This document shows positions 7,201-7,549 of a stretch of DNA of 7,549 bases, one piece after another (position 1 is the first letter of the stretch; each line of letters begins with the position of its first letter). Where the stretch lies: positions 1 through 7,549 of IMG/VR virus record IMGVR_UViG_2531839374_000013; one strand, 5' to 3'. Origin of the DNA: a virus. Its lineage: Duplodnaviria > Heunggongvirae > Uroviricota > Caudoviricetes. The position numbers were made by a program, and so were the translations under genes. The notes below the pieces were generated by a model, which made no database searches, was not told the origin of the DNA, and saw only the letters and a list, made by a program, of their open reading frames with translations.

Positions 7201-7549
7201 GGTAGCCTGAGTTTAACGGACACTCCTTCCTGAAATAGAATGGCATCAGAAGGAGCTAATAATGAGCAGAAAAAACCAACGTTACTCTAAAGAGTTCAAA
7301 GCCGAAGCTGTCAGAACGGTTCTTGAAAATCAACTTTCGATCAGTGAAGGCGCTTCCCGATTATCCCTTCCTGAAGGCACTTTAGGACAATGGGTTACCG
7401 CCGCCAGAAAAGGGCTCGGTACTCCTGGTTCCCGCACGGTGGCTGAACTGGAATCTGAAATTCTGCAACTGCGTAAGGCGTTAAATGAAGCTCGCCTTGA
7501 GCGAGATATATTAAAAAAGCAACAGCGTATTTTGCACAGGAGTCGCTGA
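7198..7549 (+). mobile_element. IS600, second copy (partial, runs off the window end), same orientation as copy 1
   Basis: 7198-7549 is identical to 1247-1599 except for one missing A in the A-run (6 A at 7513-7518 versus 7 A at 1562-1568). Confidence 0.88.
7262..7549 (+). CDS. IS600 OrfA variant, 95 aa, altered C-terminus caused by the 1-bp A-run deletion
   Basis: Identical to copy 1 OrfA up to ...RDILKK, then QQRILHRSR and stop at 7547-7549 instead of ATAYFAQESLKNTR. Confidence 0.7.
   Translation: MSRKNQRYSKEFKAEAVRTVLENQLSISEGASRLSLPEGTLGQWVTAARKGLGTPGSRTVAELESEILQLRKALNEARLERDILKKQQRILHRSR

Follow-up and report, generated by a model that had tools for sequence, protein, structure and literature searches.

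A probable one-base deletion in the programmed frameshift site of one of two neighbouring IS600 copies

IS600, IS911 and programmed frameshifting

In Sharma et al. 2014 (PMC4066793), IS600 is placed in cluster A_AAA_AAA_1 under the entry ‘Fam IS3/grpIS3/IS600 [true]; transposase A’. The published slip codon is 86, the frameshift product has 385 aa and the 0-frame product has 100 aa; the stimulation of IS600 −1 frameshifting by a stem-loop is given as a proven case, from unpublished data. The sequence AAAAAAA is described as prone to indel mutation and transcriptional slippage (PMC4066793). In IS911, according to the supplement of the same paper, the motif is A_AAA_AAG, also at codon 86, with an OrfA of 100 aa and an OrfAB of 382 aa; A_AAA_AAG is among the most efficient frameshift motifs in E. 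coli (PMC4066793). In an intact IS600, the heptamer of seven A (A7) serves to fuse OrfA, the DNA-binding part, to OrfB, the DDE catalytic part, yielding a transposase of 385 aa. On its own, an IS3-family OrfB is without the N-terminal DNA-binding domain and has no activity.

The stretch of DNA analysed here (the window; 7549 nt) contains both elements, with IS911 situated as follows:

3421–4670, minus strand: IS911 copy
4340–4346, minus strand: A_AAA_AAG frameshift heptamer of the IS911 copy, placed by the inverted repeat and an OrfA alignment

The OrfA of this IS911 copy ends in LNCSR. The 100-aa OrfAs of IS911 and IS600 can be aligned over their whole length, and both have ILKKATA at residues 83–89; IS911 uses A_AAA_AAG, whereas wild-type IS600 uses A_AAA_AAA.

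Layout and identity of the IS600 copies

The window carries two IS600 copies as direct repeats. The repeat finder matched 1247–1546 with 7198–7497 and 1563–1599 with 7513–7549, at 100% identity, the inter-copy spacing changing from 5951 in the first block to 5950 in the second. The features of the two copies are:

1247–2510, plus strand: IS600 copy 1, complete, 1264 bp, with ends TGAGGTAGCC...GTACACCTCA
1244–1246 (left) and 2511–2513 (right): target-site duplication GTC of copy 1, flanks TGAGTC and GTCTTT
1311–1613, plus strand: orfA of copy 1, wild-type, 100 aa, HTH_Tnp_1, ending in DILKKATAYFAQESLKNTR and a stop
1568–2467, plus strand: orfB reading frame of copy 1, −1 relative to orfA, with HTH_21 and the rve DDE domain
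1311–1568 joined to 1568–2467, plus strand: OrfAB of copy 1, 385 aa
7195–7197: left target site GGA of copy 2; full-length orthologues are flanked by GGA/GGA
7198–7549, plus strand: IS600 copy 2, first 352 nt, the left end identical to that of copy 1; the window stops inside the element

Copy 1 has the size (1.2–1.5 kb) and the imperfect terminal inverted repeats (5′-TG...CA-3′) of the IS3 family, with termini TGAGG...CCTCA. The 3–4 bp target duplication of the family is present at copy 1; at copy 2, the right end of which lies beyond the window, the duplication is read from full-length orthologues. The orfB open reading frame of copy 1 comprises 272 aa (1649–2467) in the −1 frame. Identical gene calls elsewhere match PF01527 (HTH_Tnp_1) and PF13276/PF00665/PF13683 (HTH_21, rve). 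The element is IS600, an already described member of the IS3 family (IS3 group) from Shigella and E. coli.

Copy 1 agrees with published IS600 in length (1264 bp), TG...CA ends, 3-bp duplication, OrfA of 100 aa, OrfB reading frame of 272 aa and OrfAB of 385 aa; codon 86, 100 aa and 385 aa all match exactly. It is also 99.4–99.8% identical to RefSeq copies named ‘IS3-like element IS600 family transposase, programmed frameshift’. Judged from the published 86/100/385 values and these PGAP-named copies, copy 1 is very likely near-identical to reference IS600.

The insertion of copy 1 is located 10 nt upstream of the intR ATG (1236, minus strand; region 1236–1272), and in gene calls the integrase is extended to a GTG within IS600, giving 423 aa instead of 411 aa. 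The start of copy 2, at 7198, falls within a ybcO-like gene, itself truncated, in a prophage remnant of the Rac type.

The A-run as the frameshift site

The slippery sequence of copy 1 lies in phase with orfA:

1562–1568, plus strand: slippery heptamer A_AAA_AAA of copy 1, in phase; codons 84–86 are TTA AAA AAA

The heptamer is found at orfA offset 249, phase 0, and a −1 slip there gives, by computation, the 385-aa fusion. In the IS600 OrfAB proteins at NCBI, the frame junction is likewise at the A-run (RDI[F/L]KKSNSVF...), with one record alone using a downstream junction. This downstream site, CTG AAA AAT (...QESLKKYALIEQ), used by one protein (P0017, 1 contig), was rejected, since the published site is A_AAA_AAA at codon 86, IS911 is colinear and the hairpin spacing suits the A-run. 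The A-run is the programmed −1 frameshift site and A7 is its reference state. The earlier note had allowed for a reference IS600 with six A; the published element reads A_AAA_AAA, with seven.

Three IS600-like transposases of 379 aa from E. coli (P0021, P0024 and P0027) read ...RDILNCTGVAEKY... at this place, both the A-run and the hairpin's 5′ arm being lost. In these proteins, orfA and orfB appear to be fused in frame, which would mean a transposase made without frameshifting.

The one-base difference

Direct reading and a gapped pattern search, for which zero chance matches were expected, gave the same result for both copies. Copy 1 reads GATATATT-AAAAAAA-GCAACAGCG at 1554–1585, with A7 at 1562–1568, and copy 2 reads GATATATT-AAAAAA-GCAACAGCG at 7505–7535, with a run of six A (A6) at 7513–7518. 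The earlier note had described this as the sole difference across the shared 352 bases, and the comparison bears it out: one A over 353/352 nt. Copy 2 is probably an otherwise consensus IS600 minus one A of the slippery heptamer, judging by its sequence. The features that result are:

7513–7519, plus strand: A6 deletion allele and the following G, now reading A_AAA_AAG in the orfA frame
7262–7549, plus strand: orfA′ of copy 2, cut short at 95 aa, its new tail being QQRILHRSR, ending in DILKKQQRILHRSR and a stop

In the database, the 95-aa product of the A6 orfA′ is named ‘IS600 ORF1 [Shigella boydii Sb227]’. Replication slippage within the run, or conversion with another A6 copy as donor, would be the most likely cause of the loss of the A.

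Consequences for the reading frames

The A6 frames were worked out both for the window and for a full-length orthologue with A6. The 0 frame reaches a TGA after 95 codons, the protein ending in KKQQRILHRSR; the −1 frame is the former orfA frame, with a stop 14 codons on, and orfB lies in the +1/−2 frame relative to orfA. Both frame claims of the earlier note are upheld by these results, namely that OrfA ends early in copy 2 (95 vs 100 aa) and that orfB is out of reach by a −1 slip. The phases 0 and −1 of orfA (HTH) and orfB (DDE rve) are present in copy 1 and absent in copy 2, in which the heptamer is one A short of that of IS600 and the 0/−1 phase relation is lost.

The deletion also generates an in-frame heptamer of the X_XXZ_ZZN type, A_AAA_AAG. 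A −1 slip on it gives ATAYFAQESLKNTR and a stop, which is the wild-type OrfA tail; the product is identical to the 100-aa OrfA. The A6 allele therefore has the motif of IS911, but its −1 frame holds the short OrfA tail and not orfB. Taken as a −1 frameshift cassette, copy 2 has the heptamer and the predicted hairpin, while the DDE reading frame is absent from the −1 frame. The conclusion of the earlier note that copy 2 has probably lost its transposase stands, in that a −1 slip misses the DDE domain, with the refinement that OrfA remains obtainable via the new A_AAA_AAG slip. Copy 2 would be transposase-dead, not OrfA-dead, and is probably unable to move on its own.

Ribosomes would slip −1 on the new A_AAA_AAG, with the hairpin 5 nt downstream, to give authentic 100-aa OrfA. 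Copy 2 would then yield two OrfA forms and essentially zero OrfAB, which would make it non-autonomous; OrfAB would come from rare −2/+1 events or from RNA polymerase adding an A, and from these alone. The copy could still be mobilised in trans, its left end being kept (both ends in the orthologues).

It is very unlikely that an A6 copy is still autonomous through −2/+1 ribosomal shifts on A_AAA_AAG or transcriptional slippage restoring A7. OrfAB from an A6 copy requires a −2 (or +1) shift; a −2 shift does give the exact wild-type OrfAB of 385 aa, A runs are known transcriptional slippage sites (Baranov 2005, in the part quoted in PMC4066793) and A6 copies occur at several distinct Sb227 loci. 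However, with −2 re-pairing the P-site tRNA would face a mismatched UAA. Efficient slippage of RNA polymerase needs longer runs than this one, of about nine or more. A6 is, moreover, rare overall, and zero SNPs mark an A6 lineage, so a spread of copies in the A6 state is unsupported. Loss of autonomy at copy 2 is the preferred reading.

The downstream hairpin

Hairpins that stimulate frameshifting have been described by empirical rules: a start 4–10 nt past the motif, a G–C closing pair and a dG of at least 7.6 (PMC4066793). The hairpin predicted in copy 1 fits these rules, and its 5′ arm is repeated in copy 2:

1571–1611, plus strand: predicted stimulatory hairpin of copy 1, dG −13.1 kcal/mol, shuffle z −1.5
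7525–7533, plus strand: 5′ arm of the corresponding copy-2 hairpin, placed 5 nt past the new heptamer; dG of the whole fold −13.1

In copy 1, the core stem GCGUAUUUU (1575–1583) would pair with AAAAUACGC (1600–1608) and begins 6 nt past the heptamer. The 3′ arm of copy 2 lies just past the window, where the source contig continues with identical sequence. Shuffling gave unremarkable fold significance (z = −1.5; −0.9 for a variant arm). Support for the predicted hairpin thus comes from the spacing rules and the cited unpublished proof, and little of it from fold statistics. An Rfam scan of the window found zero frameshift-element families, the sole matches being RalA and sok.

The variant 5′ arm, GCAACCGTGTATTTT vs GCAACAGCGTATTTT, occurs in copies at the ybcO site (loci L021–L024 and L027). 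The change from ACAGCG to ACCGUG keeps the predicted stem: C-to-U gives a G–U pair and A-to-C adds a C–G pair.

Real allele or artefact at copy 2

The window matches draft contig AMGB01000034.1 (GCA_000296305.1) letter for letter and comes from its final 7.5 kb. Its end coincides with the stop codon of the copy-2 orfA′ and is therefore a gene boundary, not the contig end; the contig ends 78 nt past the window, 430 nt into copy 2, with the A-run about 110 nt from the contig end. The A6 state of copy 2 is probably real. The other explanation, that the strain is truly A7 and that the run was miscalled at a thin contig end or built from reads recruited from another IS600 copy, is rather unlikely, but it draws on this very position: where a contig ends inside a multicopy IS shortly after the run, coverage and read assignment are least reliable. 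In addition, A7 is the state of copy 2 in the nearest relatives that share its local structure (CP026811.1, CP055124.1 and AERO01000001.1).

The quality of the surrounding assembly speaks against such an artefact. The window and its closest relative, CP026811.1, are identical over 1875 + 3262 nt but for this A; with a single indel in 5.1 kb and zero others, the assembly is not indel-noisy. Copy 1 in the same assembly has A7 in a sequence context given as identical over more than 300 nt to either side, which argues against a systematic error. The ybcO-junction copy is also A6 in an independent complete genome, CP162059.1, with 4–6 further similar places, and at one further recorded place the neighbouring proteins are again the same, the 95-aa product among them. 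The homopolymer error that the earlier note offered as its alternative is thus weakened by A6 at the same site in a complete genome and kept alive by the contig-end position.

A 4-kb alignment of the ybcO site, disturbed by one IS-disrupted locus, shows a 14-nt indel common to CP162059.1 and the A7 strain AKMW01000036.1 and absent from the window. This indel separates two A6 carriers; therefore, the A6 states at the ybcO site are independent events or independent errors. On this alignment, the A6 of CP162059.1 belongs to a different sub-lineage and is not inherited confirmation of the A6 in the window.

Frequency and distribution of A6

The 95-aa A6 product was found in 118 index blocks and 122 contigs, and the 100-aa wild-type OrfA in 2430 index blocks and at least 1000 contigs. 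Scans allowing A5–A9 found A7 in 35/35 metagenome contigs and in 46/46 copies of two species-representative genomes; A6 was thus seen in 0/81 copies of these unbiased scans, a result that favours an artefact at copy 2. Among complete E. coli records in RefSeq that gave a full-length match, 6/1336 had the exact A6 75-mer and 3 had A8; among plasmids, A6 was present in 28/262 and A8 in 3. In Shigella and E. coli, A6 alleles of IS600 are a rare minority that recurs.

Inheritance is clear for several A6 alleles, which independent assemblies have in common at one site. A6 adjoining hsdR is common to Sb227 and AMJZ01000081.1, and A6 is found at matching coordinates in O145:H28 RM12581 and RM13514. 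At the vapC site, seven S. flexneri pINV plasmids have A6, whereas A7 is found in about 50 others, pCP301 and pWR100 among them. Such reproducible inheritance at other sites weighs against an artefact in the window. Strain Sb227 has at least four A6 copies among the matches listed, at several distinct loci, and further protein accessions exist.

At three orthologous sites, both states occur. The int site has A6 in Sb227 and in locus L033 and A7 elsewhere; the distal (ybcO) site has A6 in the window, CP162059.1 and AFGC01000034.1 and A7 in at least 10 other loci; the bamD–raiA site has A6 in Sb227 and A7 in L016. In the S. boydii-like clade, A6/A7 states differ between genomes that are only a few SNPs apart in 10 kb. 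This clade pattern agrees with a hot spot for mutation, perhaps combined with inter-copy conversion, and with a measure of noise. Among 26 full-length copies, zero SNP haplotypes were linked to A6, which lies on a consensus background; spread of copies while A6 is therefore not demonstrable. A phylogeny of the flanks (10.2 kb, 14 loci) had 21 variable columns, too few to polarise A6/A7 changes.

Sb227 (CP000036.1) has A6 in the int-side copy and A7 in the distal one, and AFGC01000034.1 has A7 in the int-side copy and A6 in the distal one; the two are structurally identical, and in both the copies flank the Rac remnant. Conversion between copies, independent slippage and assembly mis-assignment are all possible causes. 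Mis-assignment between two nearby copies would give just these reciprocal states, which counts towards the artefact reading.

A8 alleles, which would place orfA and orfB in one frame, were found in 3 plasmid and 3 E. coli records (e.g. NZ_CP058683.1 84003–84079 and NZ_CP027351.1 4163306–4163382). Plasmids LR861786.1 and CP128221.1 carry A6 and A8 copies together. This mixing within one assembly suggests that homopolymer noise makes up some of the A6 seen in databases, and it too favours the artefact reading at copy 2.

An exact match to the IS600 frameshift region occurs in Streptomyces sp. UG1, on contig NODE_135 (1380 bp, coverage 1.3), and is most likely contamination of that assembly.

Decay or regulation

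Like homopolymer pseudogenes and contingency tracts, A6 is a 1-bp change in a coding run that switches the product off, and, as at contingency loci, the length of the IS600 A-run is polymorphic at orthologous sites among close relatives. Unlike contingency tracts, the IS600 run has only 7 nt, and sequencing noise adds to the polymorphism. The loss of one A from the slippery run is an ordinary, recurrent decay route for such elements and is known biology throughout.

A selected, reversible on/off switch, in which A6 copies would be OrfA-only regulators damping IS600 in IS-laden Shigella genomes, is improbable. It would accord with the A6/A7 differences at three orthologous sites between genomes a few SNPs apart in 10 kb, with the excess of A6 over A8 (28 vs 3 plasmid records; 6 vs 3 E. 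coli records) and with the authentic OrfA that a −1 slip on A6 regenerates. However, seven bases are short for a contingency tract, neutral decay together with homopolymer sequencing noise predicts the same pattern, and SNPs in the flanks are too sparse for their phylogeny to give the changes a direction. It is similarly improbable that the A-run acts as a mutational toggle, with A7-to-A6 slippage, possibly reversible or spread by conversion, making OrfA-only copies. If it did, A6 copies would deliver OrfA, a likely regulator, without transposase, and would adjust the activity of IS600 in Shigella lineages with an expanded IS content, S. boydii for example. A regulatory role of the A6/A7 polymorphism, though unlikely, is compatible with A6 being a real allele.

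The IS600 copies counted in Shigella and E. coli genomes are probably not all autonomous, the inactivating change lying within the slippery run itself, and estimates of IS600 activity based on copy number can overstate the active copies. The A6/A7 polymorphism, if real and frequent, would offer a simple marker for the decay or regulation of IS elements as Shigella genomes shrink. In practical terms the value is small. The element is a known one, and its defect is ordinary.

In RefSeq, the A6 copy of NZ_CP007136.1 (L136 2288–3443; a 1156-nt CDS in 2 joined pieces) is named by PGAP ‘IS3-like element IS600 family transposase, programmed frameshift’. A6 copies are labelled ‘programmed frameshift’, and the annotation therefore masks the loss of the 0/−1 phase relation.

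The prophage neighbourhood

The RalA antitoxin sRNA gives a full-length Rfam match at 2824–3002 (plus strand; 207 bits vs a gathering score of 170); this part of the Rac prophage remnant is flanked by IS600 copy 1 and IS911. In CP026811.1, the segment 1876–4288 is replaced by a 1.3-kb IS. With IS911 in the interval and this replacement in CP026811.1, the interval between the IS600 copies is therefore being reshaped by other IS elements. The sok antisense RNA (Rfam, 110 bits) and an ORF of the hok/gef family (70 aa) overlap each other, at 5489–5678 and 5616–5828, both on the plus strand. The hok/sok module is apparently intact, as far as its sequence indicates, and adjoins queH (4745–5431).
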